From positions 15,612 through 79,611 of the forward strand of contig DBQS01000036.1 of NCBI GenBank assembly GCA_002305355.1: a DNA stretch of 64,000 nucleotides, written 5' to 3'. How positions within the stretch are numbered: position 1 is the first letter of the stretch; each line of letters begins with the position of its first letter. This document shows, piece after piece, positions 9,353 to 59,971 of the stretch. Below the pieces are notes generated by a model, which had not been told where the DNA came from, did no database searches, and saw only the letters and a list, made by a program, of their open reading frames with translations. The translations under genes and the position numbers were made by a program. This DNA comes from Patescibacteria group bacterium UBA1388 (GTDB lineage Bacteria; Patescibacteriota; Microgenomatia; UBA1400; PJMF01).

Positions 9353-9363
9353 ACATGGGTAGA

Positions 9364-9999: not shown

Positions 10000-10101
10000 C
10001 TTCCAAATTTTCCGCCTAACCCTAAAACTGTTTACAATTACTGGCCGGTTTATCTATAGGGGGGGTTATTGCTTGTCGAAAACTTTCCCGATCAAGTTCA
10101 T

Positions 10102-25261: not shown

Positions 25262-27493
25262 TTATGATGATAGTTGAAGTTGAGCAGAAATGGAGGCCAA
25301 AAGATCTAAAGCGAGCTGATTATCTGGAGAAATGTTTGCTAAGATGTATTTCAATTGCTCAGCAGCTTCTTCAAGTTGATTGTTTTCGTAGTATGCGACC
25401 GCTAATTGATAATGTGCTACTTCATAGTCTGGTTTAAGGTTTACAGCTTGTTGTAAATGATCCAGTCCCTGGTCTATTTGCTGCAAACTAATTTCGATTA
25501 GTCCCAAATTATACAATATTTTTGGATCAGTGGAGGATAACTTTTGAGCAATTTCCATTGCTTCAGCGGCTTTAACCAAATATTTGGGGTCTAGTTGGGA
25601 AAGGGTAATAAATGTTCTGGCGCGAGTTTTATAAAAATTAAGTTGATGGGGGTTGAGTTTCATAACTGCCTCACTGCTTTGTTCAGCAGCAGTTGCAAAT
25701 TGTTGCGCCTCTTCCGGTTTTTCACTCTGGGCGAGGTTAATCGCGGCCGTCGCGAAAACGGTGGCCAACTGATCATAGTAGGTTGCTTCATATTTATTAA
25801 GCTCAATAGCACGGTAGAGACTAGTGATGGCGGCTTCGGGCTGGCCGGCAGCGGCAGCAGATTTTCCTTGAGAGTAAGCCAGATCAGCCTGCCAGTAGCG
25901 TAGGGTGGCGCTGAGACTCAGTAAGCCGGCCAGCCCTGCCGCGCTCATTAATAATATTTGTGTCAGATTAAGTCCTCGGTGTGATGTTTTATCTTCAGGC
26001 CATTCATAAATAGGTTGGTTGATTAAAACCATCACTGCCATGAAAAGGTACATTAAAATGGTGACCATTACCGTAGAAAATCCAAAAAAATTTGAGAGAC
26101 TGAGGGCTGCCACGCCAGCGAGCACTCCCGCTGACAATAGCTGCATATGCTGATCGGAGGTTGGCACATGAGGTTGAAAAATTTTAATCAGACTAAAAAT
26201 CCCGAACCAACCGAGTAATAACAAGTAGCTCGCTAACCCAACTGCGCCACTAGTTGCTAAATAATTTAGAAATTCATTGTGCGCTTTATTGTATAAAAAA
26301 TCCCATTCTGAGACAAAATTGTGATCAACTGGTCGGTCGAGATAATAACTATAAGCGAAAGTTTCCAGACCCGAACCGAAAATTGGATAACGCTGCCAGA
26401 TTTTTATCGCTCCGCTCCACACAATTTTTCTAATCTCGCCGGAATCTGTCCCTCCGGTTTCCAACCGGTTGACAACCGGCATAGACTCGGTATCCGTCGC
26501 GACCTGATTAGTCTGACTGGTATTCCACTTGAGGGTTGGGGTATAAGGAGCATCAATCAGTACCGTCATCAATAAGCAAATACTGATTACCACTGAAAGG
26601 AGCTGCCACCGCTGTTTTATCAGAGAAATAAGCATCTTTTGGCGTTTTAAAATCCATAGCAATAACACAAAGAGAATGGTTAATCCCAACCCTAACCCTA
26701 AAATACCAGACCTAGATTTAGTAAATAATAGGGTGGCAAACATCAAAATAAGTGATCCAGCATAGAGCCATCGCAACCGTTGTTTTCGATTGATTAACGT
26801 GAACACCGCTCCAACCGGAATCAGCGTGATGAGATAAGCCGCGAGCCAATTTGGTTGACCGAAGCTGGCAAAAACGCGGTTTTGCACATCCTGAACCCAG
26901 CAATTGACTCCAAAAGAAGTGCCTTTAGTGGCGAGCCAGCAGCTAATGGAATGACCAAAGTGTTCAAGACTAGCATAAACAGAAGTCAAAACTGCAGCGA
27001 GAAAGGTGGTTAAAAACAAACTTGGAAGATGTTTTTTTTGAATATTGGTTACAAAAGCATAATAAAGTGCCACATAAGTGATAATAGATAGTAATCCACC
27101 GTGAAAACGCGAGTAGTACCCAAATAGAGAAGTATAAGGATGGAGTGAAAAAATAGTAGCCAGCAATTGAGACAGCAAAAAAACCACGATGGGAATATCC
27201 AGTGGCGTACGACGAAAGACAAACTGTTTAGCGGCAATCATTTTTACCACCCAGGCTAATATGATGATAATTGCTAAGGCATAAGTGAGCACCATCTTGT
27301 TAAACTCAAAGAGCTCACTGGTGTTAAACCAGAAAAATAAAGGTACCATCAAAAGAAGCGCATGAAAGCTTGTTACCAAAGTAGCTTGGGACCACTGCAA
27401 CAAACCGGACTCTTGATGATTGTGAAGAGCAGCGGCAGATTTAGTTTGAGTTGGTTGTTGACGCGCTAGTTTGCGGCGATGTTTTTTTGACAC
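25262..27493 (-). CDS. O-antigen ligase (Wzy_C) family polytopic membrane protein with C-terminal TPR repeats
   Basis: Multiple TM helices; NKAHNEFLNYLATSGAVGL Wzy_C motif; C-terminal 200 aa with TPR-like repeats (AYSQGKS..., YNLGLIEISLQQIDQGLDHLQQAVNLKPDYEVAHYQLAVAYY). Confidence 0.7.
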   Translation of the reverse strand: MSKKHRRKLARQQPTQTKSAAALHNHQESGLLQWSQATLVTSFHALLLMVPLFFWFNTSELFEFNKMVLTYALAIIIILAWVVKMIAAKQFVFRRTPLDIPIVVFLLSQLLATIFSLHPYTSLFGYYSRFHGGLLSIITYVALYYAFVTNIQKKHLPSLFLTTFLAAVLTSVYASLEHFGHSISCWLATKGTSFGVNCWVQDVQNRVFASFGQPNWLAAYLITLIPVGAVFTLINRKQRLRWLYAGSLILMFATLLFTKSRSGILGLGLGLTILFVLLLWILKRQKMLISLIKQRWQLLSVVISICLLMTVLIDAPYTPTLKWNTSQTNQVATDTESMPVVNRLETGGTDSGEIRKIVWSGAIKIWQRYPIFGSGLETFAYSYYLDRPVDHNFVSEWDFLYNKAHNEFLNYLATSGAVGLASYLLLLGWFGIFSLIKIFQPHVPTSDQHMQLLSAGVLAGVAALSLSNFFGFSTVMVTILMYLFMAVMVLINQPIYEWPEDKTSHRGLNLTQILLMSAAGLAGLLSLSATLRYWQADLAYSQGKSAAAAGQPEAAITSLYRAIELNKYEATYYDQLATVFATAAINLAQSEKPEEAQQFATAAEQSSEAVMKLNPHQLNFYKTRARTFITLSQLDPKYLVKAAEAMEIAQKLSSTDPKILYNLGLIEISLQQIDQGLDHLQQAVNLKPDYEVAHYQLAVAYYENNQLEEAAEQLKYILANISPDNQLALDLLASISAQLQLSS

Positions 27494-27741
27494 AATATCA
27501 TACTAACATTACTCGATACTTGATAAATTTTGCTTAAAAATTATCAGGCTTGGTTAAAAAACAAGCCAGATTTTGATAGCAGATTTGATAACAGCAGTAT
27601 AACATCTCACTAACGTATCCTACTTAATTTGCTAACCAAAAAGATACTCATTTTCTTACAATTGATGAATTCTCGAGTAGAAGCGAGTCTTGAGGTCTAA
27701 CCATCTTTTAGTGTACACTTAATTTGTAACCAACCTTAGTT

Positions 27742-28836
27742 ATGTTAGGTATTGTTATGAATGATGACTCCTCACTCAACCAAAAGTCACACTATGTGGA
27801 TGCATATCAGCCTCCAAACCAACCGTCTGGCTCACCCGTTAATAAAGCTGCAGGACAAACCTCAAGTCAGTCCACTGATCAGTTTTCAGGGCAGCACTCT
27901 ACTGGTCAGTCAACAACTGGTCGAGTAACTGATCAACCGGTGGTTTCGCCGTCTGCGCAACCTCTTGATGAGCCCTCTGATCAGTTCACTACCCAATCGT
28001 CTGATCAACCTGTTGACGAACTTACTGATCAATTGACAAGCCAACCATTTGATCAATCTCCTGACAAATTTAATGATCAGTCAGCTCAATCACCAATTCA
28101 AAAAACAAATCAATCAGAGGACCAATTACCTAATCAAACATCAGACCAACTTAGTAGAGAAGAGTTGTTGGATCAATTTTCCACGCAACCCGCTGATCAA
28201 TCTCCAACCCAGCAAGACAACGAGTTTTCTACTCAATCTCCCAATCAGGTATCGGAGAGTAAACCACTTCATCAATCTGTCGATCGATCTCCAGAAGACC
28301 AACCTTCTCTTCAATCAGCAGCAGATGACATAGTTTCAGATCCAAAATTGCCCTCCCTTGATGATGGAAAAGTGTCTTCTGCCACCGCAACATCCAATTC
28401 AGAAGCTCTTGAAGACCAAAATATTTTCTTTTTATTAGGGGTAAGTGATGGTTCAAACGAGCAGAAAGAATCTTTTTTAGACGAACTGCAGGAAGTGATT
28501 TGGGAGGATTTTTTGGAGTATGATGTCAAATTGTTAATCACCAACGATGAACAACAGCAATTACAGCAATTGTTGAGCTCAAATCAAGGTTCTGAAGAGC
28601 AACGTCAAGAAGCAGTTGTGCAATTTCTGGAGAAGTTGATTCCTGATCTTGAAGAGATCATGCTTGAAAAAGCGATGGAGTTAAAGGCAGAAATGGTGCG
28701 AGAACGGGCTTCCGGTTTGCGCACTTATTATGCAGACAACGCCCAAAAATTAAATCGCGTTGGAGATGCTGAAAAATTAATGGATGAAAATAAATGGTAT
28801 TCGGCAGCTCACTTAATGAATAGTTTGGCCGCTTAG
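27742..28836 (+). CDS. Asp/Gln/Ser-rich intrinsically disordered protein with a structured C-terminal domain
   Basis: About 230 aa of degenerate repeats (SDQ, TDQ, DQS) with no TM; C-terminal about 130 aa is not low-complexity. Confidence 0.55.
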   Translation: MLGIVMNDDSSLNQKSHYVDAYQPPNQPSGSPVNKAAGQTSSQSTDQFSGQHSTGQSTTGRVTDQPVVSPSAQPLDEPSDQFTTQSSDQPVDELTDQLTSQPFDQSPDKFNDQSAQSPIQKTNQSEDQLPNQTSDQLSREELLDQFSTQPADQSPTQQDNEFSTQSPNQVSESKPLHQSVDRSPEDQPSLQSAADDIVSDPKLPSLDDGKVSSATATSNSEALEDQNIFFLLGVSDGSNEQKESFLDELQEVIWEDFLEYDVKLLITNDEQQQLQQLLSSNQGSEEQRQEAVVQFLEKLIPDLEEIMLEKAMELKAEMVRERASGLRTYYADNAQKLNRVGDAEKLMDENKWYSAAHLMNSLAA

Positions 28837-39039: not shown

Positions 39040-40644
39040 TTATCCTCTGTCCAGAAATTGGGTGCGCGAAGTAGGATCAACATGGGGGATATTCGCATTC
39101 ATCCCACCCCAAAAATGGTTGAGAGTGATCAGTTTTTTGAGCCACGCGTGAGTTAATGAACGATAAGCAATGTGACCACCCGGCCTTGTGCGCAAATGAA
39201 TGAGATATTGTAGATCATCGATGGAACCATAAAAACGGTAAGTAGTAGCATGGGCATGAGGAAGTAAATACTTGGTATATTCGTCAACGAGAGGCTGATC
39301 ATCGAATTCGTGAGAAGCTTGGTACCGCCACTTTTTGAGAAGTTGATAGGTGTTTGTTAATCGTTGCTGATATGCTCGTTTAAGTGGTTTAAGTTCAGGA
39401 ATTGCCAGATAATCACATAAGAAGTAACAAGCTTGATCATCTCGATTCAACTCGGCTTCCAAATTAATTTCGTCTTGCCAAACAGGCACAAATCTCTCCA
39501 AACTTCGATGTCGATTTAAATCTTTTAAAATTCCAAAATCTGCCATCCCCTCAATCGTAATTGCTCCACTTTGAGCAGCTGGACCGATTTGGAAATGATG
39601 GTTGTGTTGGCTGAAAACTAATGCGCCGATTTTTTGCAATTGATTTCTACTGAGGATAAATTTATTTTCTCTACTTAATGGAAATTCAAGTAACTGTAGA
39701 TGACGAAGATAAGCCTGGAAAGCATTAGTGTTGTAAGCAACTCTGAGGGTTGTGTTTGGCGATCGACCGATTGTTCTGTTGGCAGATGATTTCTTGAACA
39801 AACTCCGTAATTGTTTAATGAGTGCACGATTGGTATTGATTTGTCTGGTGTTGGCCGTTGTGTGCCTGATTAAACCATCTGCTTCGGGGATGTATCCGGT
39901 TTTAGAATGTTGTTTGCCTCCCACTAGTAAGTCAAAAAGCAAATTTCCCAAGTGCTGGTCGATACCCATCGCGCTTCCTTTCAAGAGCGCAATTAATTCT
40001 GCCCAGTTACGGGCAGACATAATCATTCCGAGGCTGGTTTGTAAGCCCATGGGTAATAAATAACGAGCCGTGTCAAAAGTCCTAGCTTGCAGAGCGGCAG
40101 CTTGCCGTTTGTCGTTAGTGTCAATTTTAAAATAATCTGCGAGGGCGGTTTGGGTGAGTGGCAATAGTTCCCGATAATCTGCCATTTGTTTGAGTATTAT
40201 TTTTTCATAATTTGTTTTGGCAGCAGAATTTTTAGTTATTGGTAGCTTCACAAATTTTGGATCGGCAAAGTTTTGAAATCTGGTTGATCTTTCTTGACCA
40301 GCCACTACTGGATTGCGGTAAAACAACCTCATCGCAGTGATCATGGGAACATTTTCAATGCATACAAATACATCTGCCATATCTCCCACTGATTTGTGGC
40401 CATAATTTTGAAATATTGCTTCCAGACGACTGGCTGCGTCAGTGTCTTTCGCAAGCACTTCTTTGGCAATCTCAACCACTGAATCTGCCGATCGGCTGTA
40501 ACGCGCTCCCAAATAAGCGTTAATTGAAGGTTGTTTACGTAGGGGATCTTGGAGTAAGGTATGAACCGCTAAGTGATGCCAGCTAGTTTGACTGGATAAA
40601 CTGGCGATATGAAGTTGGGGGTAGAATTTAAATTTTTGAGACAT
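39040..40644 (-). CDS. thyX: Tandem-duplicated ThyX-like (flavin-dependent thymidylate synthase family) protein
   Basis: N-half RLFYRNPVVAGQERSTRF aligns with the ThyX RQWFRHRIASYNELSGRY region; C-half contains RHR (NRHRSLERF) and the ThyX C-terminal LPxxxxTxxxxxxxxRxLxxxxxLRT motif (TTYRFYGSIDDLQYLIHLRTRP). Confidence 0.5.
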   Translation of the reverse strand: MSQKFKFYPQLHIASLSSQTSWHHLAVHTLLQDPLRKQPSINAYLGARYSRSADSVVEIAKEVLAKDTDAASRLEAIFQNYGHKSVGDMADVFVCIENVPMITAMRLFYRNPVVAGQERSTRFQNFADPKFVKLPITKNSAAKTNYEKIILKQMADYRELLPLTQTALADYFKIDTNDKRQAAALQARTFDTARYLLPMGLQTSLGMIMSARNWAELIALLKGSAMGIDQHLGNLLFDLLVGGKQHSKTGYIPEADGLIRHTTANTRQINTNRALIKQLRSLFKKSSANRTIGRSPNTTLRVAYNTNAFQAYLRHLQLLEFPLSRENKFILSRNQLQKIGALVFSQHNHHFQIGPAAQSGAITIEGMADFGILKDLNRHRSLERFVPVWQDEINLEAELNRDDQACYFLCDYLAIPELKPLKRAYQQRLTNTYQLLKKWRYQASHEFDDQPLVDEYTKYLLPHAHATTYRFYGSIDDLQYLIHLRTRPGGHIAYRSLTHAWLKKLITLNHFWGGMNANIPHVDPTSRTQFLDRG

Positions 40645-40738
40645 ATGTTGATGTGATGATATTACACAAAATGGGTTTGTTAAGTTTTTTCATAATTGAA
40701 ATTGGCAAAACCACTCAAATTGAAGTGCCGGCTAGGTG

Positions 40739-41557
40739 TCATCGTTTTAGTTGACCTGATTTTGCCAAATACTTATTAAATATCTTACTGAGTTTTGGCA
40801 GGCCTTTATCATCGGTGTAATCGATTTTGCAGGCAGAAATTGAAATAAAACCCTCATTTAAAGCAACTGTGTCGGTGTTTGGCGGCAAGCCGTCGTACTT
40901 TGAATCGATATAAGAAAAATCATCATCAGTCATCACGATGTCATTTTTCCAGTAAGCTTGCTGGGCGGTTTTTACTACCCGCACTTGATTGGTTGCTTCT
41001 TCAGGAAAGTTAATGTTCCAAAAAGTGTATGGTTCAAATTGAGTACTTAACGCTTTTTTAATGATTATTTCCAGCATTTGACCAGGGTAGGCGAGGTATT
41101 TTTCATTAAAACTACCGTCATGCTCATGGAACCACCTGCCATCAGTGACGATAGAAGTAGCCAGCGCCGGGACTAAAAAACTTTGGACAGCGGTAATCAC
41201 TGCTGCCACGGTGCCTGACCGATGAATATTGGCGGTGGTGTTGCGCCCAATATTCACTCCGGAAATAACTAAATCTGGTTTTTTATTAAGTTTATTGAAC
41301 CCAAAATAAACTGCGTCTGAAGGTGTGCCATCAACCCAGTAAGCAGTAGTGCCATCCACTATCTCCGTACCCCAAACAATAGGTAGGCCAAAGGTGATTT
41401 TGCCTCCCACTGCTGATTGCTGTGACTTTGTGGCTACAACAGCATAATCCGCAAATTTTTCTACAATGCGTTTTACCAAAATCAAGCCTTCAGCGCGCAC
41501 CGAATCATCGCCAGTGAGCATAATGAATGGTTTTGATTTTTTTGTGCGACGCGCCAC
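40739..41557 (-). CDS. surE: 5'/3'-nucleotidase SurE
   Basis: IMLTGDDSVRAEGL (N-terminal DDG-like metal site), VISGVNIGRNTTANIHRSGTVAA. Confidence 0.7.
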   Translation of the reverse strand: MARRTKKSKPFIMLTGDDSVRAEGLILVKRIVEKFADYAVVATKSQQSAVGGKITFGLPIVWGTEIVDGTTAYWVDGTPSDAVYFGFNKLNKKPDLVISGVNIGRNTTANIHRSGTVAAVITAVQSFLVPALATSIVTDGRWFHEHDGSFNEKYLAYPGQMLEIIIKKALSTQFEPYTFWNINFPEEATNQVRVVKTAQQAYWKNDIVMTDDDFSYIDSKYDGLPPNTDTVALNEGFISISACKIDYTDDKGLPKLSKIFNKYLAKSGQLKR

Positions 41558-41578
41558 AGTTTGCCTTTTTTGGTTTTT

Positions 41579-42154
41579 TTAGGATTTCTCAATAAAATTT
41601 CGCGACATTTTGCTGGCTTCCACAGTGGTATTTTTGTAGTACTTACTATTTAAATCGGCATGACCATAAGGTTTTTGAGCGGGTGTCTTGAGGCTGCAAA
41701 ATGCAATTTGTGCGATTTTCATTTTAGGATAAAGCTTAATCGGCATGCTGTTGGTATTATAAAGTTCAAGTGTGGCGTTGAGCTCGTTGCCGGGATCAAC
41801 AAAACCAGCCGTAGTATGAATGATCAATCCCAATCTTGCCAGGCTACTTTTGCCCATAATATTGCAGCAATAACTAGGGCCAACTCCGAAGTAGTCATCA
41901 GTGACTGCTAGTGCAAATTCATTGGGATGGAGAATAAAAAAATCCTTTTCAGATTTGAGATGAATTTTTGCCATATAGTCTCCGGCGGGATGCTTGGGGT
42001 CAATCACCGACATTTCATGTCTTTTAAAAACCATGAAGTCAAAACCTAGCAAGATGTCATAACTAGCAGGTTGCAACCGCCTTTCATCAAAATCCTTGAT
42101 AATGATTTCTCCCGCTTGTAAGGCTTGTTTGATATCAATGTCTGAAAGATACAT
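41579..42154 (-). CDS. dcd: dCTP deaminase
   Basis: MYLSDIDIKQAL...LQPASYDILLG N-terminus; dUTPase-fold motifs. Confidence 0.8.
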   Translation of the reverse strand: MYLSDIDIKQALQAGEIIIKDFDERRLQPASYDILLGFDFMVFKRHEMSVIDPKHPAGDYMAKIHLKSEKDFFILHPNEFALAVTDDYFGVGPSYCCNIMGKSSLARLGLIIHTTAGFVDPGNELNATLELYNTNSMPIKLYPKMKIAQIAFCSLKTPAQKPYGHADLNSKYYKNTTVEASKMSRNFIEKS

Positions 42155-42380
42155 ACTAAATCTGGTGGATGACCAATGAATTAACTACTAAATATATCCT
42201 CGGGCAGGAGAATCAATTCAGTTTAACGGATTTTAAAAAGTTTGCAATGGATGAATGTTGAAGCACACAAAACCTCAGAATGTGGGGGACCTATACAAAA
42301 GGATTCAGACACCTGAATAATATGGTAGACTGAAAGAAGAATGAATTAGAGCTGGGACGTTATTCGCAAGGAATTAGTTT

Positions 42381-42758
42381 ATGACTGCAGAACTTAGGTC
42401 AGATCAATTGACTGCCAGCACGATAGTAGTCAAAGGTACTAATCAGACATCGAATAAGCAAAAAGACACTTCAGCAGTCACCACGAAAAGAGTAGATTTT
42501 AGTGATCCAGACATTGTTGACCGGAAAACGGGTAAAACTCTTTATGAAGTAGGAGTTTGGGAAATTGTGTGGCGAAATTTTTTGGCGGGCATGAGCAGAG
42601 GGTTGGGTAACTTAATTTTGTTGATCATTTTTTCACTTGTGATTGGAAATTTATTTATGACTTATATCTGGCCGCACTTGTCTCCATTGGTCGATAATTT
42701 TTATTCGTCAAGCCAGTTATTTAATTTTGTTGAACAAAATTTTCCAACCGGTAGATAA
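42381..42758 (+). CDS. Hypothetical small membrane protein (one C-terminal TM)
   Basis: Open frame only; TM LGNLILLIIFSLVIGNLFMTYIW. Confidence 0.35.
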   Translation: MTAELRSDQLTASTIVVKGTNQTSNKQKDTSAVTTKRVDFSDPDIVDRKTGKTLYEVGVWEIVWRNFLAGMSRGLGNLILLIIFSLVIGNLFMTYIWPHLSPLVDNFYSSSQLFNFVEQNFPTGR

Positions 42759-42963
42759 ATTTAATTTTCCAACTTGAACGTTTAAATAGTCTTGATCGAT
42801 TGATTTAGACGTTAATATGACAGGTGATCATTATGCACAATCATAATCGGTAAGAAATGATACGGAATAATTATGTTTTAAGTTGTGATAGATTGTTGTT
42901 TGGATGATGACTAACTTTTTCAAGTAGTTTTTTGTAACTTGTTTGTAAGTAGAAAGGAAAGTA

Positions 42964-43395
42964 ATGAAGGTTCTCATTAAACGTTTTGATAAAACATTAC
43001 CGATACCGGAATATAAAACACCTGGGGCAGCTGCATTTGATTTGGCTGCGCGTCAAGATACGCAGATACCCCCAGGGGGTATAGGATACGTGCCGTTGAA
43101 CATTGCCCTGCAGCTGCCCAAAGACCACTGGGCATTGCTCGCCGCTCGGAGCAGCTTACACAAGCTAGGGTTGATGCTTGCCAACGGAATTGGGGTCGGG
43201 GATTATGACTATCGTGGAGACGGTGATGAATATTTGGCGGCGGTGTACAACTTCACTCAGCAGCCCGTTTTAGTGGAGAGGGGCGAGCGGATTGTGCAGA
43301 TGATCATTATGTCGCGCGAGGCAGTAGAGTTGATCGAAAAAGATCATTTCAATACTAAGGATCGCGGGGGTTACGGCAGCACTGGGCGGAAGTAG
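42964..43395 (+). CDS. dut: dUTP diphosphatase (trimeric dUTPase)
   Basis: GAAAFDL, RSSL, GVGDYDYRGD and GGYGSTG motifs (dUTPase motifs I-V). Confidence 0.8.
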   Translation: MKVLIKRFDKTLPIPEYKTPGAAAFDLAARQDTQIPPGGIGYVPLNIALQLPKDHWALLAARSSLHKLGLMLANGIGVGDYDYRGDGDEYLAAVYNFTQQPVLVERGERIVQMIIMSREAVELIEKDHFNTKDRGGYGSTGRK

Positions 43396-43562
43396 AGTTT
43401 CCAACAATTGAGGAAGCAGCAAATATCTTAAGCCAATTGTTTAAAGAAGTATGAGTGCCAATCTAATAGAGTCGACAAAAGTGACTGCGAAAATAAAGAC
43501 TCATCATTGAAAAAATAAGCATTTTTGCTTGATTTATTGGGCTGGAACAAACTAGATTTAGT

Positions 43563-44294
43563 TTGTCAAGTCTTGCATTAATACCAAATATTGTGGTTGA
43601 GTGTGTAGCTGTGCCACATTTATTAGAACAAGCCAATCAGAGTGTCGTTAAGTTGAGAAAAAGTCATCGCTTATTTGAGGAAAAAGATCGGTTGTCACCA
43701 TCATTGTTGTTACCGTTGGCGGTAGAAGAATTAGATGAATTGGCTGAGGCTTACGATCAAGATGATGCTCAGGCGGCTTTAGGTGAATTGATGGATGTAA
43801 TCAATTATTGTTTATCCAATTTACAAGTTACGAATCGGCAACCAGCGTCTTTTTCTGACTTGATGCAGGGGGTTAATGGTTACGGTAAAAATTCGTGGGC
43901 AATTGAGCGCACCTGTGAAGTGATTCTTGATTCAGAAGATGATTACCGCGCGATTGCTGAGTATTTAAGACGCTTGTTTTCTATTGGTCAGTATTTGCCG
44001 ATTCCATTTGTGAGTATTAATCAATTTAATGAGATGATATTGAAAGTGGCGGCCAACAGACCGGTTCATTTTTATAGCGGACTTGATCCTTTAACTGGTC
44101 GAGCACTGTCTGGGGAAGACGCAGTCTTAGCTTTTCATCACTTTGAAAAGTGTTTCAGAGCAATTCGCGATCAGGTGCAAAGGACGCTCCAGCCGCAAGA
44201 CTGGCAACCGCACCAAAACGAGATAGCAGATTGGCGCCACTCGACAGAAAATTTGGCCAAGCTGCGACAACGGCTAAAAGTAGAGCCAGCTTGA
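43563..44294 (+). CDS. Protein with an N-terminal MazG-like all-alpha NTP-pyrophosphohydrolase motif; C-terminal part unknown
   Basis: VEELDELAEAYDQDDAQAALGELMDVINYCL resembles the MazG/HisE EExxE...ExxD metal-binding helices. Confidence 0.35.
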   Translation: MSSLALIPNIVVECVAVPHLLEQANQSVVKLRKSHRLFEEKDRLSPSLLLPLAVEELDELAEAYDQDDAQAALGELMDVINYCLSNLQVTNRQPASFSDLMQGVNGYGKNSWAIERTCEVILDSEDDYRAIAEYLRRLFSIGQYLPIPFVSINQFNEMILKVAANRPVHFYSGLDPLTGRALSGEDAVLAFHHFEKCFRAIRDQVQRTLQPQDWQPHQNEIADWRHSTENLAKLRQRLKVEPA

Positions 44295-44689
44295 TGATCA
44301 ATCAATAATTGGTGAGCGATAGCTTATCACACCTTAGCCAAATAACGCCGTTCGTGGGATCGGGGATATAAGCCAAGAAAAGCCACTACGGGATTCTACC
44401 AAAAAAAGCCAAAACCCTGATCATAAGGTTGCGGGGAAGGCTTCGTATTTGAAGCGAAAATTGACCAAGCAATTATCAGTGTTAATCAAAGTTAATGAGG
44501 CAACGTGTTATTTTTTTGCAAGAAACGACCGCTCACTCAGTTGTTTGGTTGTTCATCTATCCTGCGATCTTAATTCAGTAATGAACTACTAGCGAAAATG
44601 GTACTCCCCAGCCAAGCTGAAATGTTTTATAAAGTATTTGAAGAGGATAAAATGTTTACGATTAGTTAGTATTTAATTGGAAAGATGCT

Positions 44690-45319
44690 ATGGCTGACAA
44701 AGGATTATTGATTACATTTGAAGGCGGCGAGGGCGGTGGTAAAACCACTCAAATTGTGAGGTTGCGTGACAAACTCACCAAGGCAGGTCATGATGTAGTA
44801 GTTCTGCGTGAGCCCGGCGGAACTGTCATCAGCGAGCAAATTAGAGAAGTGGTGCTGTCTGCCAAAAATGCTGGCATCGCCTACACGACGGAAGTCTTGT
44901 TGTTTCAGGCCGCTCGCGCGCAAATTTACCGAGAAATTGTATTACCTAGTTTGAAGGCTGGCAAGATAGTCTTGATTGATCGATCACGGGATAGCTCGGT
45001 GGTGTATCAGGGTATGGTAAGAGGTTTCGGGAAAGATTTGATTGAGCAACTCAATGAAATTTCTACAAAAAATACTTACCCAGATTTAACAATACTACTT
45101 GATATATCAGTAGAAGAAGGATTACAAAGAAGGGCAGATTCCGGCACTTCAAACCGCTTGGATATGGAAGATACTGATTTTCACCAAAAAGTTCGTGATG
45201 CATACTTGCAGCTAGCCAAAGAAGATTCTGCTCATCGATGGGTAGTAATTGATGCCAACAAATCTATTGATGAAGTTGATGAAGAAATTTGGACAAAAGT
45301 TTCCGTAAAATTAAACTGA
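44690..45319 (+). CDS. tmk: Thymidylate kinase
   Basis: ITFEGGEGGGKTTQ P-loop; DRSRDSSVVYQG (DRx motif); LID region. Confidence 0.85.
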   Translation: MADKGLLITFEGGEGGGKTTQIVRLRDKLTKAGHDVVVLREPGGTVISEQIREVVLSAKNAGIAYTTEVLLFQAARAQIYREIVLPSLKAGKIVLIDRSRDSSVVYQGMVRGFGKDLIEQLNEISTKNTYPDLTILLDISVEEGLQRRADSGTSNRLDMEDTDFHQKVRDAYLQLAKEDSAHRWVVIDANKSIDEVDEEIWTKVSVKLN

Positions 45320-45683: not shown

Positions 45684-45911
45684 TTACTCTCTATATCCAC
45701 CAAATGAATGAGAACAGCCAGGTTGGTTAATACATCCTGGTGGGATGTTTTTTATAAGAGTATGAATCTCTATTAGCGTCATCAATCGTTCAAGAGGACA
45801 TTGTTCACCCACATTTGCGGCTTGATCGCCATCAAACGCAGGTGCTGTTTGAGATTCATCTTGGTAATGATGACCAGTTGGCGGGATATCACTCGACTCG
45901 ATATGATTCAT
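45684..45911 (-). CDS. Hypothetical protein (75 aa)
   Basis: Open frame only; convergent with the preceding ORF. Confidence 0.25.
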   Translation of the reverse strand: MNHIESSDIPPTGHHYQDESQTAPAFDGDQAANVGEQCPLERLMTLIEIHTLIKNIPPGCINQPGCSHSFGGYRE

Positions 45912-46025: not shown

Positions 46026-46052
46026 CCTAGTGCTAGTACTAGGTTTTTTTTT
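46026..46052 (+). terminator. Rho-independent terminator-like hairpin plus T-tract
   Basis: CCTAGTgctagtACTAGG (6-bp perfect stem) followed by TTTTTTTTT. Confidence 0.5.
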
Positions 46053-46257: not shown

Positions 46258-47880
46258 ATGTCTAGTTATCAAAAAGTTTCAAGTTATGAGGGTAGGCAAG
46301 GTGAGGTGAAGAGAGTAGTGCTCTTATACTCTGGTGGGTTGGATACTTCGGTGATGTTGAAGTGGATCCAAGACAAATATGAGGCAGAAGTTGTTGCGCT
46401 CACGATTGATATTGGTCAGCAAGCTGACGATCTAGAAAAAATCCGCAAGAAAGCGCTTAAACTAGGAGCGATTAAAGCCATAATTGTTGACGCCAAGAAT
46501 GAGTTTGCTTATCACTACATTGCCAAAGGTATTAAGGCAAATGCGCATTATCAAGGTCGATATTACTTGAGTACGCCACTGGGTCGACCATTGCTAGCAA
46601 AATTGGCGGTTGATGCTGCTCGCGAACACGGTGCTGATACGATTGCGCACGGTTCAACTGGAAAAGGCAATGACCAAGTACGGTTGGAAGGGGCGGTTTT
46701 AACCCTCGCGCCAGAGATGAAGATCATTGCACCGGTGCGAGAGTGGAGTATGGGCAGAGACGAAGAATTGGCCTATGCTAAGAAACATAAAATTCCGGTT
46801 AAGCAAACTGTTAGCAGCCCGTATTCATACGACGATAATATGTGGGGTGTAACTGGCGAAAGTGGCGAGATTGAGAATCCAAGCATAATTCCGCCACTTG
46901 AGAAAATCTTACAGGTTTCCACTTTACCAGAAAAAGCCCCCAACAAACCACAATATGTTGAGCTCCAGTTTGTCAAAGGTTTGCCGGTGGCACTCGACGG
47001 TAAACAACTGGGGTTAGTAGACTTAATTGGTCAGCTAAATAAAATTGGAGCCAAGCATGGGGTGGGGATTGCTCATCATATCGAAGACAGGTTGGTCGGT
47101 CTTAAAGTACGGGGTTTATATGAAGCTCCCGCTGCAGAAATCATCATTAATGCCCACTTCAATTTGGAGAAGTATGTCTGCACCAGGATGGAAAATGAAT
47201 TTAAATCACTAGTAGATTCCAAGTGGGCATATCTTTGTTATGGGGCAATGTGGCATGAACCATTAATGAATGATCTAAACGCTTACATTAACAAAGTTAA
47301 CGAAAAAGTGACAGGTTCAGCAACGGTGAAGCTCTTTAAAGGTATGGCGGAAGTGGTGGCAGTAGACACCCATAACACCATTTATGATGAGAAGCTGGCG
47401 ACTTTCATGAAAGATGCGAGTTTTAATCAAAATGCTTCGCCTGGGTTTATTGAAATCTATACACTCCAGATGAGATTAGCTCAAGAAACCGATAAATTTG
47501 CATTGTTGACGATTGGGGAAGAGCACAATAAACGCAAGTTTTTACCACTCGTTGAAAGACTGAAAAAATTGGGCTTTTTCTTCTATGCCACTGAAAACAC
47601 CCATCAGTTTCTCAAGAAAAAAAAGATAGAGTCGATATTACTTCATAAAATGTATAGCGGAAAAAACCCAAATTTGGAAGATATTCTCAAGCAAAATTTG
47701 TTTGACTTAATTATTGATATTCCGTACAGCAAACAAACGGCGGGCAGTGAGAAAGATGAAGAAGTGATTCGAGAGTGGGCTATCAAAAATGATATTCCGT
47801 TGTATACCGATTTTAGGACAACTGAAAATTTAATCAAGAAATTGGAAAAAAGAATGGTCGTGCAGAAGAAAGGACGATGA
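46258..47880 (+). CDS. argG: Argininosuccinate synthase fused to a C-terminal MGS-like (CarB/PurH-type) domain
   Basis: LLYSGGLDTS PP-loop, HGSTGKGNDQVR and full ArgG core to about aa 412; C-terminal about 125 aa (FLPLVERLKKLGFFFYATENTHQFLKK...LFDLIIDIPYS...VIREWAIKNDIPLYTDF) matches the MGS-like fold pattern. AAAGGA RBS. Confidence 0.8.
   Translation: MSSYQKVSSYEGRQGEVKRVVLLYSGGLDTSVMLKWIQDKYEAEVVALTIDIGQQADDLEKIRKKALKLGAIKAIIVDAKNEFAYHYIAKGIKANAHYQGRYYLSTPLGRPLLAKLAVDAAREHGADTIAHGSTGKGNDQVRLEGAVLTLAPEMKIIAPVREWSMGRDEELAYAKKHKIPVKQTVSSPYSYDDNMWGVTGESGEIENPSIIPPLEKILQVSTLPEKAPNKPQYVELQFVKGLPVALDGKQLGLVDLIGQLNKIGAKHGVGIAHHIEDRLVGLKVRGLYEAPAAEIIINAHFNLEKYVCTRMENEFKSLVDSKWAYLCYGAMWHEPLMNDLNAYINKVNEKVTGSATVKLFKGMAEVVAVDTHNTIYDEKLATFMKDASFNQNASPGFIEIYTLQMRLAQETDKFALLTIGEEHNKRKFLPLVERLKKLGFFFYATENTHQFLKKKKIESILLHKMYSGKNPNLEDILKQNLFDLIIDIPYSKQTAGSEKDEEVIREWAIKNDIPLYTDFRTTENLIKKLEKRMVVQKKGR
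47503..47877 (+). other. MGS-like domain appended to ArgG
   Basis: Pattern GFxxxATxxTxxxLxxxxI...VxxxxxGxxPxxxDxIKxxxxxLIIxxP..S resembles the CarB C-terminal allosteric domain. Confidence 0.5.
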
Positions 47881-48857
47881 TGACCAAATATTGGGATTTG
47901 AAAGCAACGTTGCTTGAAAAAATTAAGGCGCGTGGCGGTTGGACCAACTGCCACGCGCACCTTGATCGCGCATATACCATCACCAAAAAAAACTTTGCGC
48001 TCAGCAACAAATTGAGAGGTGAAAAATGGCAACTCAATCGTGAGTTGAGACAGCGCTCAACAGTGAATCAAATTTATGACCGGATGGCAATGGCGATAGA
48101 GGTGCTGCTTGCTCAGGGCGTGACTGCTATCGGTTCTTTTATTGATGTTGATGATGACGTCAAAGACAAGGCTATTCAGGCCGCTATCAAAATTCGAGAC
48201 AAATATCAGGCTGATGTGACTATCAAGTACCTCAACCAATCTAGCTATGGTTTGTTTAATCAGGATAAAAAGGCCAGGGAGTGGTTTGATGTTGGCGCCG
48301 AATTTGTGGATATCATTGGTGGTTTGCTCAAAGCCGATGCGGGTAGAGAAGAGGAACATTTGGACATTTTATTGGCAACCGCCAAACGGATGGGTAAAAT
48401 GGTGCACGTCCATGTAGATGAAATTAATTTGCCCGAAGAACATGAGACTGAAATGCTGGCGAAGAAAACAATTGAACATGGCATGGAGGGAAGAGTGGCG
48501 GGGATTCATGGCATTTCGATTAACGCTCGGCCGCAGGCCGAGCGGGAGAAGATCTACAAACTGATCAACAAGGCGCAAATAATGTTTATTTCTTGTCCCG
48601 TTTCTTGGTTAAATTCCAGTCGCAGTGAAAAACTGTCACCCATCCACAACCCACTCACGCCAGTTGACGAAATGTTGGCGCACGATATTACGGTTGGGAT
48701 CGGGGTAGATAACATTGCCGATATTTTTATGCCTTTCAATAATGCCGATTTATGGCTTGATTTACGGGTTTTATTGGAGGCTGCACGTCTTCACGATCTT
48801 GATGTGCTCGCAAAAATTGCTTCTACCAACGGTAGGAAAATTTTAGGGATTAAATAA
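47877..48857 (+). CDS. Cytosine-deaminase-like amidohydrolase (CodA family), ATGA-coupled to argG
   Basis: TNCHAHLDRA (HxH metal site), IGSFIDVDDD, VHVHVDEINLPEEHE, GIGVDNIADIFMPF align with the CodA metal-binding and catalytic segments. Confidence 0.65.
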   Translation: MMTKYWDLKATLLEKIKARGGWTNCHAHLDRAYTITKKNFALSNKLRGEKWQLNRELRQRSTVNQIYDRMAMAIEVLLAQGVTAIGSFIDVDDDVKDKAIQAAIKIRDKYQADVTIKYLNQSSYGLFNQDKKAREWFDVGAEFVDIIGGLLKADAGREEEHLDILLATAKRMGKMVHVHVDEINLPEEHETEMLAKKTIEHGMEGRVAGIHGISINARPQAEREKIYKLINKAQIMFISCPVSWLNSSRSEKLSPIHNPLTPVDEMLAHDITVGIGVDNIADIFMPFNNADLWLDLRVLLEAARLHDLDVLAKIASTNGRKILGIK

Positions 48858-48961
48858 TTTTAGGGACAAAATAATGGATTGTTTAACATTGGCCGCACTG
48901 GATGATTGATAGAGAATTTGCTGATTAGATTTGACTTGCTGCTGACATCTACGACAAATAC

Positions 48962-57147: not shown

Positions 57148-57178
57148 GTAACCGTTTTTGGCTCTAAAAAAGACAATT

Positions 57179-58567
57179 ATGAGCCCTAGTCATGGGTTAA
57201 ATTCAATCTCTCCTTTAGATGGCAGGTACGCCCCACGTGTCAAAAATTTGGCTATCATTTTTTCTGAATCAGGTTTGATAAAGTTTCGGGTGAAAGCTGA
57301 AGTGGAATATCTGCTGGCTTTTTTGTCCGAGACAAAGTTAGTGAGCGTGACAACAAAAAAAACTGCCGCAATCCGTCAGATTGTTGAGCGATTTGATGAA
57401 AAGCAAGCCCGTCAAGTTAAACAATATGAAGCTACATGTAGACATGATGTGAAAGCGGTGGAGTATTTTTTGCGAGCGGAGTTGAAACGCTTGGGGATGG
57501 ATGAACTTATTCCGTATATTCATTTTGGACTAACTAGCGAAGATACAAACTCCGTTGCCTATGGATTAATGCTACAAACTTCGTTGCATCAGGAAATATT
57601 GCCCCAAATTAAAAAAGTGATTGTGGGCTTGGTTCAGCTAGCTGAACCAAATATATCGGCTGTGATGATGGGTAGAACTCATGGTCAACCGGCGGTGCCG
57701 ACCACAATGGGTAAAGAACTACTGGTTTTTGTGAAGCGGTTAGTTGCTGAATACCAATCTTTAGCTGTTTTATCCATAGAGGCCAAGTGCAATGGTGCAG
57801 TGGGTAACTGGCACGTTCATGACTTATTTTTTCCAAACAATAATTGGCCAAAATTTAGTGAGCGGTTGATTAAAAATTTAGGTTTGCAACCGAACGATGT
57901 TACTACTCAAATTGTGCCCGCTGAATCGATGGTGAAGTATTTTCAATCTTTAATCAGAGTTAATCAAATTATAATTGATTGTGCCAGAGATTGTTGGCAG
58001 TACATCAGTGCTGATTATTTGCATCAAATACCACGGGAGAAAGAAGTGGGTTCTTCAACGATGCCCCAAAAAGTGAACCCGATTGATTTTGAAAATGCAG
58101 AGGGCAATGCGGGTTTGGCAACGGCGTTATTAGCTCATTTCACAGAAAAGTTACCAATTTCTAGGTTACAGCGAGATTTATCTGATAGCACGGTCAAGAG
58201 GTCGATTGGGGTAGCGCTTGGTCACTCCTTACTCGCGATGCAATCTTTAGTAAAGGGGTTGAGTCGAGTTGAGGCGAATCGGCAGTTAATGTTGACAGAA
58301 GTCCGCCATCATCCAGAGATGATGGCGGAGGCAATTCAATCGGCTTTACGGTTGGATGGTAGAGCTAATGCTTATGAGTTAGTCAAAAGGCAGAGTAGAG
58401 GAAAGGAGTTTTCAGAACAAACCATCCATATGATATCCCAACAAATTAAAGATCCAGTTTATCGGCAAATACTTATTAATCTCAAGATAGAAGATTACAC
58501 CGGCCTCGCTGTAAAGCTCACCAAATCTGAAATTAAAAAAATAAAAAAATATTTAGCAAAAAACTAA
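57179..58567 (+). CDS. purB: Adenylosuccinate lyase
   Basis: MSPSHGLNSISPLDGRY N-terminus; fumarase/lyase signature GSSTMPQKVNP. Confidence 0.85.
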   Translation: MSPSHGLNSISPLDGRYAPRVKNLAIIFSESGLIKFRVKAEVEYLLAFLSETKLVSVTTKKTAAIRQIVERFDEKQARQVKQYEATCRHDVKAVEYFLRAELKRLGMDELIPYIHFGLTSEDTNSVAYGLMLQTSLHQEILPQIKKVIVGLVQLAEPNISAVMMGRTHGQPAVPTTMGKELLVFVKRLVAEYQSLAVLSIEAKCNGAVGNWHVHDLFFPNNNWPKFSERLIKNLGLQPNDVTTQIVPAESMVKYFQSLIRVNQIIIDCARDCWQYISADYLHQIPREKEVGSSTMPQKVNPIDFENAEGNAGLATALLAHFTEKLPISRLQRDLSDSTVKRSIGVALGHSLLAMQSLVKGLSRVEANRQLMLTEVRHHPEMMAEAIQSALRLDGRANAYELVKRQSRGKEFSEQTIHMISQQIKDPVYRQILINLKIEDYTGLAVKLTKSEIKKIKKYLAKN

Positions 58568-58627
58568 ATTTATGCAGATTCTACTATTTTACTTATTATT
58601 AATAGAATTATTAGGAGAAAGGCAACG

Positions 58628-59971
58628 ATGAGAAAGAACACGGCGGCATTTTGCGGCGGAGCATATGGCGATGAAGGAAAGGGTAGAATTGTGGATTGGT
58701 ACGTCAACAAGTTTGCTCGCAAAGGTCCGGTGGTGGTTTTTCGTGACAATGGTGGCGCCAATGCCGGACACACCGTGGAAGTAGGGGATACAAGGATTGC
58801 GTTACATCAACTGCCAAGTGGAGTGATGATTGAAGGCGTGAAGTTGCTTTTGGGCAAGGGCATGGTTATTCATCCGGGCGATTTAATTCAAGAAATTGAG
58901 TCAGTGGAAAAAGCGACCGGAAAATCTTTAAGCAAGCGCATCAAAATAGACGAACTGGCGGTGTTAACACTTGATACTCACCGGGCTTTTGAGACCGTTC
59001 TAAAAAATTGGCAAAAAGGTGGATCAGGTTCAACGGGACGAGGAATTTCTCCGGCCTATGCAGATGTGCTGCTTCGCCATCCCGTCAGAGTGCGAGATAT
59101 TGTGCCGTTTCATACCAATTCAATTGCGGCGCATTACCAACTTTATCAGTCATTAATTTCAGGTCTTGGTCAAGATTTATCTTCAACACGCGTTGTAACA
59201 GCTGCTGGGGAAATGATGCCAGTTGGTTCTGAAAAGGAGTTTATTCAAAGATTACGAACACAAGCTAAGAAATTGAATATATTCGTGACTAATTTAGTTC
59301 CACTACTGATTAAATATTGGCAAGATGAACAATTAGGCATTGTTTGTGAAAAAGCTCAAGCCATTGGGTTGGATGCAAGGTGGGGAGTATATCCGGATGT
59401 AACAGCGTCAGATACCACTTTCGCGGGTATTCAAGCTGCTACGGAAGGTGCTTTTAACATTGATGAGATTACCCTGCGAGCCGCAGTCATTAAGGCGACA
59501 TACATGTCAAGCGTCGGGGCCAGGCAATTACCAACACATATGACAGGAGCCTTAGCCAATCAAATCAGGCGGGATGCTGATGAGTATGGTGCAACTACCA
59601 AAAGACCACGCGACATTGCCTATCTTGATTTGCCAGCAATTCGGTTTTTTATTAAGGTGGGTGGAGTGAAACAGTTGATTTTAACGCATATGGACATCAT
59701 TTATGATCAGCCGCTCAAAATTTGTGTTGATTACAAGCTAAACGGCAAGTCAGTCTCTTATCGTCCTGATCAGGTATATTTGAATAAAGTCACACCAGTC
59801 TTTCAGAACTTAAAACCCTGGAAGCGGGCAGAAATTCAGGCAGCTCAATCTAAAAAGGACTTACCTTTCGCTGCCAAGCACTACGTAGAATTTTTGGAAA
59901 AAGAACTCCACATCAAGATTCCGATGATTACGACAGGACCGAAAAGAGAGCAAACGATATTGCTTTCATAA
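58628..59971 (+). CDS. purA: Adenylosuccinate synthetase
   Basis: GDEGKGRIVDW P-loop, FRDNGGANAGHTV, GTTKRPRD-like (TTKRPRDIAYLD) motifs. Confidence 0.85.
   Translation: MRKNTAAFCGGAYGDEGKGRIVDWYVNKFARKGPVVVFRDNGGANAGHTVEVGDTRIALHQLPSGVMIEGVKLLLGKGMVIHPGDLIQEIESVEKATGKSLSKRIKIDELAVLTLDTHRAFETVLKNWQKGGSGSTGRGISPAYADVLLRHPVRVRDIVPFHTNSIAAHYQLYQSLISGLGQDLSSTRVVTAAGEMMPVGSEKEFIQRLRTQAKKLNIFVTNLVPLLIKYWQDEQLGIVCEKAQAIGLDARWGVYPDVTASDTTFAGIQAATEGAFNIDEITLRAAVIKATYMSSVGARQLPTHMTGALANQIRRDADEYGATTKRPRDIAYLDLPAIRFFIKVGGVKQLILTHMDIIYDQPLKICVDYKLNGKSVSYRPDQVYLNKVTPVFQNLKPWKRAEIQAAQSKKDLPFAAKHYVEFLEKELHIKIPMITTGPKREQTILLS

Follow-up and report, generated by a model that had tools for sequence, protein, structure and literature searches.

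A fused argininosuccinate synthase and a PRK06886 amidohydrolase as the possible core of a non-canonical entry to pyrimidine synthesis in Patescibacteria

De novo pyrimidine synthesis is among the most conserved of pathways, and in the CAD and Aquifex arrangement the allosteric domain of carbamoyl-phosphate synthetase (CPSase) and dihydroorotase are neighbors. The literature on Patescibacteria describes these bacteria as lacking complete nucleotide and amino acid pathways. Here, we describe a pair of overlapping genes at positions 46258-48857 of a 64,000-nucleotide stretch of contig DBQS01000036.1 from Patescibacteria group bacterium UBA1388; "the window" below means that whole stretch. The first gene encodes an argininosuccinate synthase (ArgG) that ends in an MGS-like domain, and the second encodes an amidohydrolase of the PRK06886 family. 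The reading we favor, at a probability of roughly 45%, is that this pair forms the conserved core of a non-canonical entry to pyrimidine-ring synthesis in Microgenomates-type Patescibacteria.

The short "type I" ArgG enzymes of T. thermophilus (1J1Z) and human (ASS1, 2NZ2) share the two-domain core, the ATP-PPase motif, and all ligands with the window protein, which differs from them by an MGS-like domain of ∼125 aa added after the C-terminal oligomerization helix. The gene for the fused protein (ArgG-MGS) is placed in a pyrimidine cluster and not next to argH. The added domain belongs to the same Pfam family as the CPSase allosteric domain (E. coli CarB 937-1073; the N-acetylglutamate-binding domain of human CPS1, 2YVQ) and keeps its phosphate ligands, but it occurs here on ArgG, on the hydrolase, on PyrD, or on a ligase resembling asparaginyl-tRNA synthetase (AsnRS), and not only on CPSase. 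With AtzC (N-isopropylammelide isopropylaminohydrolase) and CodA (cytosine/creatinine deaminase), members of cog0402, the hydrolase has in common the mononuclear-metal TIM barrel, the HxH, H, H, and D ligands, and the HxDE acid, and with AtzC also a DN motif; it differs from both in its length (326 aa vs 403-427), the absence of a beta-sandwich, a loop at 244-259, and a de novo pyrimidine context. The dihydroorotase PyrC (types I-III) is likewise a member of the amidohydrolase superfamily, and the hydrolase takes the pyrC position in one locus (L078) and lies upstream of pyrD in others; it is nevertheless of a different amidohydrolase subgroup, gives no sequence or fold match to PyrC, and is not expected to have the binuclear carboxylated-lysine center. 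The succession of MGS-like domain and hydrolase resembles the CAD junction, where the CPSase allosteric domain leads into dihydroorotase. The urea or ornithine cycle and the cyanobacterial ornithine-ammonia cycle (ornithine carbamoyltransferase (OTC), ArgG, ArgH, ArgZ) offer a further parallel: OTC, ArgG, and a DDAH-like enzyme co-occur in loci L088 and L086, and ornithine would be a recycled carrier in our scheme too, although the exit from argininosuccinate that we propose would be hydrolytic and toward dihydroorotate instead of proceeding through the lyase to arginine. Full-text literature searches returned no description of an ArgG-MGS fusion, of PRK06886, of a CodA-like or other non-orthologous dihydroorotase, or of argG or argininosuccinate in Patescibacteria. 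The component families are known, whereas the architecture and the pathway we infer from it are not known to have been described before; for the pathway to be a new one we see a substantial chance, somewhat below even.

The gene pair comprises the following features:

46258..47880, + strand: argG-MGS gene, 540 aa (open reading frame; Pfam and NCBIfam matches; at least 120 homologous clusters with the same architecture)
46312..47478, + strand: ArgG catalytic core, residues 19-407 (ATP-PPase motif YSGGLDTS; citrulline and aspartate ligands)
47494..47862, + strand: MGS-like domain of the CarB allosteric-domain type, approximately residues 413-535 (PF02142)
47877..47880, + strand: ATGA stop/start overlap, translational coupling (sequence)
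47877..48857, + strand: PRK06886-family amidohydrolase gene, 326 aa, or 325 aa from the second ATG (open reading frame; NF005365)

Both Pfam domains of the ArgG part (Arginosuc_synth, residues 19-180, E = 3e-65; Arginosuc_syn_C, residues 189-407, E = 5e-66) end by residue 407, and the protein passes the ArgG equivalog models (NF001770, 501 bits against a cut-off of 334; TIGR00032, 454 bits against 268), so that the core is indeed complete by about residue 412, as a preliminary description made from the sequence had it. Against T. thermophilus ArgG (1J1Z), the core scores 336 bits at ∼50% identity. The citrulline- and aspartate-binding residues of human ASS have been listed (PMC13289927); the equivalents of Y87, T119, N123, D124, S180, E191, E270, and Y282 do not vary among the 120 homologues compared, and that of R127 is kept in 119 and aligned to a gap in the remaining one. 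The sole substitution among the substrate ligands is at the equivalent of S189, which is Thr in all 120. On these sequence grounds, we regard the ArgG part as a normal argininosuccinate synthase; with a catalytically complete core and invariant ligands, it should make argininosuccinate. A structural model of the full-length protein is of low confidence (pLDDT 61, pTM 0.48), with pLDDT values of 77-91 in the MGS domain. A divergent ArgG-like protein with an MGS domain (P0287, 476 aa) lacks the citrulline and aspartate ligands (equivalents of Y87G, T119V, N123F, and R127Y) and is probably a different enzyme.

In a search of 5.8 billion proteins, the homologues of ArgG-MGS fall into at least 120 clusters of 71-100% identity from NCBI, JGI, ENA, and Logan assemblies, all of ∼540 aa with the MGS domain, and the hydrolase homologues form a set parallel to them, in which the longest contigs often have the same lengths as those of the ArgG-MGS matches. 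The carriers of the fusion are Pacebacteria, Woesebacteria, and Daviesbacteria-type genomes, where databases label it simply "argininosuccinate synthase." We collected loci in two ways: by scanning GTDB species genomes with a hydrolase profile, which yielded 21 Patescibacteria-type loci, and by a metagenome census of 80 loci picked only by an ArgG C-terminus followed by MGS. The fusion is present in 18 of the former and in the 80 metagenome loci, so that ∼100 fetched Patescibacteria loci carry it; an ArgG with this domain, which the preliminary description had not heard of, is in fact the standard form across a large part of the Patescibacteria. The same description had also proposed to check for a frameshift, and the fusion proves genuine. 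That it is a sequencing, assembly, or frameshift artifact has a negligible probability, and we rule it out: the same architecture recurs in hundreds of independent assemblies from the four sources, the linker YTLQMRLAQ-x4-FALLTIGE is conserved, and purifying selection is strong (in a comparison of the window with L004, the nearest fetched relative, dN/dS is ∼0.006 in the ArgG core and ∼0.08 in the hydrolase).

The junction of the two genes reads CGATGATGACC in the direct sequence. The argG-MGS stop codon TGA (47878-80) overlaps the first hydrolase ATG by 4 nt (ATGA) and the second by 1 nt; public gene calls start at the second ATG and give the 325-aa protein. Stop-to-start spacing is at most 30 nt in 62 of 66 related loci and exactly -4 in 13, which agrees with the translational coupling claimed earlier for the pair. 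L004 departs from this pattern: a spacer of 212 nt separates its two genes, which in the window overlap at ATGA. Between the window (46258-48857) and L004 (8166-10978), third-position identity is 53-58% for argG-MGS and 78% for the hydrolase gene, a sharp difference in synonymous divergence between adjacent genes; recombination inside the gene pair is possible.

The extra ∼125 aa had been described as a CarB-type MGS-like domain, and profile searches agree. PF02142 matches residues 428-517 with 52.4 bits (E = 5.8e-14; the gathering score is 24.1), the NCBIfam comparison places residues 415-533 on positions 937-1050 of CarB, and the closest solved sequence is the C-terminal domain of human CPS1 (2YVQ, E = 1.6e-8). 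The K, T, T, and K residues equivalent to the IMP/UMP phosphate ligands of E. coli CarB, which we take to be K954, T974, T977, and K993, are kept in 21 of 21 aligned MGS domains from six architectures. Since these phosphate-ligand equivalents are conserved, control by nucleotides is plausible as judged from the sequence. The ornithine site of CarB is an interdomain interface, and that interface does not exist in ArgG-MGS. PurH and MgsA use the MGS fold for catalysis, and a domain of this fold accompanies the hydrolase-containing systems always, whichever protein bears it, so one might ask whether the domain itself performs a reaction, either a ring closure like that of IMP cyclohydrolase in PurH or that of methylglyoxal synthase. 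This we consider very improbable: the similarity is to the CarB/CPS1 allosteric domain and not to PurH or MgsA, whose models give no match to the window protein at E ≤ 1, and the conserved residues are the nucleotide-phosphate ligands of CarB.

A library-wide search with the window MGS domain found PyrD, an AsnRS-core-like ligase, CarB, and an amidohydrolase (the last bearing the domain at its C-terminus) as its other carriers, and MGS, AsnRS-core-like ligase, PyrD, and PRTase are joined in one chain of 1134 aa (P0270). One motif pattern is common to all MGS domains of these architectures. The domain is better viewed as a module of the pyrimidine system, which in other phyla sits on the hydrolase itself. 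The ligase, whose AsnRS-like catalytic core resembles archaeal asparagine synthetase A, is combined with MGS in P0270, P0367 (807 aa), P0267 (502 aa), L021:852-2271, and L172:8179-9666, and some of these proteins are extended by PyrD and PRTase. We considered whether it substitutes for ArgG-MGS on an either/or basis and ruled this out, as both occur together in L152 and L156.

The hydrolase belongs to NF005365/PRK06886, a family named "hypothetical protein," with 417 bits against a cut-off of 340 and coverage of residues 7-326 of 326; fused members from Hirschia and Verrucomicrobia reach 567 and 431 bits on the same model. Its motifs are HxH (H26, H28), HVDE (H179-E182), H211, and GVDN (D278-N279), and 74 family members drawn from several phyla share H26, H28, D30, H179, D181, H211, D278, and N279 without exception. 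The catalytic set of CodA (H61, H63, H214, E217, H246, and D313) corresponds to H26, H28, H179, E182, H211, and D278, and CodA D314 is replaced by N279, as in AtzC. In a profile search of solved proteins, AtzC ranked nearest (E = 1e-29), followed by CodA (E = 1e-22). The AF2 model (pLDDT 91) matches CodA and 5-methylcytosine deaminase in Foldseek at TM 0.85 and AtzC at 0.79, with no dihydroorotase among the top 50 matches, and no dihydroorotase model of NCBIfam matches the sequence. CodA models score 98, 92, and 74 bits, far under their cut-offs of 403, 438, and 483, and the alignment is confined to CodA residues 57-341, without the flanking beta-sandwich. With AtzC as its closest solved sequence, orthology to CodA is ruled out. 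The "CodA-like" of the preliminary description thus stands insofar as the protein is of the cytosine-deaminase branch with DN in place of the CodA DD, whereas the protein is a PRK06886 member and no CodA orthologue. On the model, the hydrolase would consist of a TIM barrel alone, of the CodA/AtzC type, and its metal site would be mononuclear. The loop at 244-259 (W244 ... H257-N258-P259), which is peculiar to the family, has invariant residues and is disordered in the AF2 model.

Members of PRK06886 from other phyla (Hyphomonadaceae, Verrucomicrobia, Planctomycetes, and Campylobacterales) are 36-43% identical and always carry their own N-terminal MGS-like domain in a single protein of 460-540 aa, which databases name "amidohydrolase family protein," "MGS domain protein," or "cytosine deaminase." The residues R31, R47, K152, H177, E182, R223, and W244 are specific to Patescibacteria and are K, M, S, D/E, Q, Q, and A in the other phyla, a sequence difference that hints at a different or larger ligand. 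The equivalent of CodA E217 is Gln in all 51 members from outside Patescibacteria and in L002. We had considered E182 as a marker that would set an amine-releasing Patescibacteria form apart from a plain dihydroorotase form, and the Gln in L002 weakens it.

The gene order ArgG-MGS, hydrolase, PyrD, PyrE, and PyrF is complete in L001 (a 1.04-Mb contig) and runs as far as PyrD in L002 and L003, and the pyrE and pyrF of the relatives score above NCBIfam cut-offs. pyrD adjoins the pair, collinear or rearranged, in 16 of the 21 GTDB loci. In the metagenome census, 62 of the 68 loci with enough flank contain the hydrolase, directly downstream in 54, and of the 39 loci whose downstream flank measures 6 kb or more, 32 contain pyrD, pyrE, or pyrF. 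A DDAH/arginine-dihydrolase-like gene was found in 10 of the 80 census loci and OTC in 1, ArgH in none, and aspartate carbamoyltransferase (ATCase) solely in L162 and L163, both of which are without the hydrolase. Several titles of GTDB and ENA metagenome-assembled genomes among L008-L020 and L031 are at odds with the gene content, which is Patescibacteria-like or generic Verrucomicrobia-like (e.g., "uncultured Gammaproteobacteria/Pseudomonadales bacterium" and "Akkermansia muciniphila isolate MiE-14oct19-53"), and we took these taxonomy labels as unreliable.

Over all loci, ArgH lies near ArgG-MGS in 1 of ∼105 (L086), and ∼90 Patescibacteria loci with the hydrolase, each spanning up to 20 kb, contain no ATCase. 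The matches listed by an ArgH homologue search were dominated by sequences of Daviesbacteria and Levybacteria. The carbamoyltransferase of hydrolase-containing clusters is OTC (L086, L088, and L138), never ATCase, which is seen only where the hydrolase is missing (L163 and L171); canonical PyrC is seen only in L163, again a lineage without the hydrolase. OTC passes its equivalog cut-offs in L088 and L086, and neither ATCase nor PyrC is present there; these two clusters would each encode the alternative route in full. A DDAH/arginine-dihydrolase-like gene is operonic with ArgG-MGS in ∼14 loci, and its product is a plausible source of citrulline. Plain ArgG (∼420 aa, no MGS), by comparison, adjoins argH in 4 of 4 loci (L169-L172), and L169 and L170 have no pyr genes nearby. 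Four gene orders illustrate these arrangements:

L088: ArgG-MGS, DDAH-like, OTC, then hydrolase, then PyrD, PyrF, PyrE
L086 (Daviesbacteria): CarAB, hydrolase, OTC, ArgH, ArgG-MGS
L172 (Daviesbacteria): plain ArgG, AsnRS-like-MGS, ArgH, PyrE-like, hydrolase
L171 (Daviesbacteria): ArgH, plain ArgG, OTC, ATCase, CarAB; no hydrolase

Among the three syntenic Daviesbacteria variants, the hydrolase is found only where an extra MGS carrier exists (L086 and L172, not L171). The scarcity of ArgH near ArgG-MGS, together with an accompanying carbamoyltransferase that is OTC and never ATCase, argues that the argininosuccinate is not made mainly for arginine. L172 also encodes, at 15334-16296, an OTCace-family protein that lacks the STRTR carbamoyl-phosphate motif and scores 79 bits to ATCase; its gene clusters with the hydrolase, the AsnRS-like-MGS ligase, asd, and the PyrE-like PRT. 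In L163, a TfrA/NadB-like flavoprotein (4170-5810; 579 bits to fumarate reductase TfrA, below the cut-off) lies between ArgG-MGS and PyrC, and pyrB-carB-carA stand opposite ArgG-MGS, flavoprotein, and PyrC.

Three divergent ArgG-MGS loci contain no PRK06886 hydrolase and have another deaminase-type amidohydrolase of 443-475 aa directly downstream:

L093:4442-5803, L131:6366-7694, L143:2546-3970: alternative amidohydrolases, closest to 8-oxoguanine deaminase and not dihydroorotases

These proteins score 353-427 bits to 8-oxoguanine deaminase (cut-off 532) and are 43-46% identical to one another; PRT/UPRTase genes follow, with a radical-SAM or unknown protein between. Whether its partner is PRK06886 or the 8-oxoguanine-deaminase-like protein, ArgG-MGS is repeatedly paired with relatives of amidine and guanidine hydrolases.

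Outside Patescibacteria, the single-protein MGS-hydrolase also appears among pyrimidine genes. A high-GC actinobacterial metagenome-assembled genome (L078) has the operon pyrB, truncated pyrC, MGS-hydrolase, carA, carB, and pyrF, in which pyrC is reduced to the N-terminal ∼175 residues of the canonical type I enzyme and MGS-hydrolase follows immediately; this looks like displacement of pyrC in situ, in an assembly that seems, from its isolate name, to be long-read derived, so that sequencing indels may contribute. A pyrR fragment is fused to pyrB in the same locus (7822-10957). pyrF directly follows the fusion gene in Verrucomicrobia, and in L025 MGS-hydrolase faces pyrD and a pyrF-pyrE fusion; the Hyphomonadaceae neighborhoods (ccmF, enoyl-CoA hydratase, redoxin) are uninformative. 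The hydrolase is therefore found where a dihydroorotase gene would be placed, in the pyrC slot (L078) or before pyrD (most Patescibacteria loci). The pyrimidine-salvage pairing suggested in the preliminary description does not hold up, as the linkage is to de novo pyrD, pyrE, and pyrF and, in other phyla, carAB and pyrB.

Taken with the chemistry of the hydrolase's relatives, these contexts suggested to us the following scheme. ArgG-MGS would convert citrulline, aspartate, and ATP to argininosuccinate, and the hydrolase, acting either on argininosuccinate or on the six-membered anhydride formed when it cyclizes, may then break the ornithine-side C-N bond of the guanidino group to give ornithine and dihydroorotate or carbamoyl-aspartate. 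The two enzymes would in this way replace ATCase and dihydroorotase, and the product would enter PyrD, PyrE, and PyrF, as the context in relatives suggests. Citrulline may be supplied from arginine by the DDAH/arginine-dihydrolase-like enzyme, from ornithine and carbamoyl phosphate by OTC, or by scavenging, and the MGS domain may be a nucleotide-sensing (feedback) module, a docking module, or both, placed on ArgG where CarB is missing. Argininosuccinate is N-amidino-aspartate and cyclizes spontaneously to a six-membered anhydride. This anhydride is a dihydroorotate that bears an ornithino-imino group at C2, where hydrolysis gives dihydroorotate and ornithine. Relatives of the hydrolase carry out comparable reactions: AtzC strips an alkylamine from the amidine carbon of a six-membered N-heterocycle (triazine); CodA has creatinine, which is a cyclic guanidine, as a further substrate for deamination; 2-amino-4-oxopyrimidines are attacked at C2 by the 8-oxoguanine and isocytosine deaminases; and HutF hydrolyzes an N-formimino amino acid. 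Argininosuccinate anhydrides are routinely measured by mass spectrometry (PMC11016166). The integrity of the ArgG sequence and the genomic linkage are direct observations, and the hydrolase substrate and the MGS effector are our inference from them. In its wider form, the proposal is that many Patescibacteria build the pyrimidine ring by a urea-cycle-like shunt that bypasses ATCase and dihydroorotase under nucleotide feedback through MGS, with an 8-oxoguanine-deaminase-like hydrolase in some lineages and with ornithine, or scavenged or arginine-derived citrulline, as the carrier of the carbamoyl group; we put this form forward as a possibility that falls somewhat short of an even chance.

Several observations weigh against the scheme. 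The hydrolases show 60-68% identity and the same invariant residues whether their link is to ArgG-MGS, CarAB, or the AsnRS-like ligase, which argues for one common substrate across these contexts, and the Gln of L002 at the position of CodA E217 occurs in a lineage where the hydrolase is linked to ArgG-MGS. The ArgH in the ArgG-MGS operon of L086 implies that the enzyme there also serves arginine synthesis. In L163, ArgG-MGS accompanies canonical PyrC, PyrB, and CarAB and the PRK06886 hydrolase is missing, so ArgG-MGS can belong to a pyr cluster that is canonical throughout. In L078, pyrB is retained next to MGS-hydrolase, which fits a plain dihydroorotase role better. The scheme gives no role to the AsnRS-like ligase with MGS that co-occurs with ArgG-MGS in L152 and L156. 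In the window and in L004, only the core pair is left at the locus and pyrDEF is missing; tblastn with Patescibacteria queries found no pyrD, pyrE, or pyrF in the 64 kb of the window, nor are they in the next 10 kb downstream. What we read were loci, so ATCase, canonical PyrC, and ArgH may lie elsewhere in these genomes.

The records of L078, L086, and L163 would agree with a PRK06886 hydrolase that is a non-orthologous dihydroorotase needing an MGS partner, with ArgG-MGS an ordinary arginine enzyme and ATCase and ArgH encoded elsewhere, so that two ordinary pathways would share one "carbamoyl-phosphate/aspartate" supercluster. This explanation, the main rival and in our judgment less likely than the scheme above, draws on the MGS-hydrolase that replaces a truncated pyrC between pyrB and carAB-pyrF, on its placement beside pyrF (Verrucomicrobia) or beside pyrD and pyrF-pyrE (L025), on argG-MGS, argH, and argF in the one operon of L086, on the ArgG-MGS beside canonical PyrC, PyrB, and CarAB in L163, and on Daviesbacteria, where the hydrolase tracks the extra MGS carrier and is missing in L171 with its ATCase and plain ArgG. 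It is, however, at odds with the lack of ATCase in ∼90 hydrolase-containing loci where OTC, DDAH-like, and pyrDEF genes do cluster, and with an ArgH that adjoins plain ArgG and almost never ArgG-MGS. A DDAH/deiminase-like gene that turns arginine into citrulline would also be futile in an operon with an arginine-making ArgG, and the characterized close relatives of the hydrolase are all amidine or guanidine hydrolases, with no cyclic amidase of the dihydroorotase type among them; the alternative partner in L093, L131, and L143 is of the deaminase type too.

The other explanation to be weighed is that the hydrolase is a salvage deaminase for a base or nucleoside (of cytosine, isocytosine, or guanine type) and that its adjacency to ArgG-MGS reflects shared regulation only. 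A fold and catalytic residues shared with CodA and 5-methylcytosine deaminase, the nucleotide-interconversion neighbors in the window (dut, dcd, tmk, thyX, surE, purA, and purB), the presence of udk or upp close by in some loci, and a window without pyrDEF all suit such a role. We nonetheless find it improbable: the protein scores far below every cytosine-deaminase cut-off and belongs to a clade that is distinct and deeply conserved, marked by invariant residues of its own and by the 244-259 loop, the linkage is specific to de novo pyrD/E/F, pyrB, carAB, and the pyrC position, and an obligatory MGS partner would be left unexplained. Whether the pair forms the ArgG-dependent entry that we prefer or the hydrolase is a dihydroorotase, a role of PRK06886 in de novo pyrimidine synthesis is probable.

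If a non-orthologous dihydroorotase is at work, it would fill a gap in pathway maps, and the replacement of ATCase and dihydroorotase by ArgG and an amidine hydrolase would be a larger change still. Automated annotation scores Patescibacteria as "pathway incomplete," which reinforces the notion of a dependence on hosts for nucleotides; the scheme suggests instead that arginine or citrulline, and not nucleobases, may be what episymbionts take from hosts for pyrimidines. It would also give a role to the orphan PRK06886/COG0402+COG0458 "MGS domain protein," found in Hyphomonadaceae, Verrucomicrobia, and Planctomycetes as well, would make PRK06886 a new and widespread class of dihydroorotate-forming enzyme in several phyla, and would present the CarB allosteric domain as a mobile regulatory or docking module.

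The surroundings of the pair in the window, for which Pfam matches were obtained through Logan contig SRR5321221_3 (140 kb, which includes the window), comprise the following features:

39040..45319, no strand given: upstream nucleotide-metabolism genes, namely, ThyX-like, SurE, dCTP deaminase, dUTPase, and thymidylate kinase (Pfam, NCBIfam)
48858..48961, no strand given: spacer between hydrolase and recR, the place of pyrD-pyrE-pyrF in the syntenic L005 and L007 (gene-order maps)

The order from tmk to argG-MGS is conserved in L001, L004, L005, L007, L008, and L018, and the window and L004 are syntenic with L005 and L007 over dut, tmk ... argG-MGS, hydrolase, [pyrD pyrE pyrF], recR, and hpf. 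The same tblastn search found no OTCace, carA/B, or DDAH-like gene in the window. ArgH is absent from it as well, the Lyase_1 gene at 57158 being PurB (526 bits, cut-off 446; 39 bits to the ArgH model). This purB, a paralogue of ArgH, and a purA-like gene (288 bits, below the cut-off) occupy 57158-59971, 8 kb downstream of the pair, and are the window's only Lyase_1 and aspartate-ligating purine genes. The ThyX-like open reading frame (39040-40644, - strand) encodes 534 aa, about twice the usual length, and its thyX match is weak and limited to residues 39-220 (35 bits, cut-off 88).

Terminator-like hairpins with T-runs lie at 45732-45748 and 46026-46043 (+ strand) in the 600-nt gap upstream of argG-MGS, which suggests that argG-MGS and the hydrolase gene are a transcription unit of their own. 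There is no terminator-like site between the hydrolase gene and recR, and Rfam and promoter/terminator scans returned nothing else of note. A one-directional replication skew has been reported for some Microgenomates (PMC7143001), and the window is reminiscent of it: GC skew is positive in all 2-kb bins of 1-64000 save 26001-28000 (-0.028), and the cumulative skew rises almost continuously.

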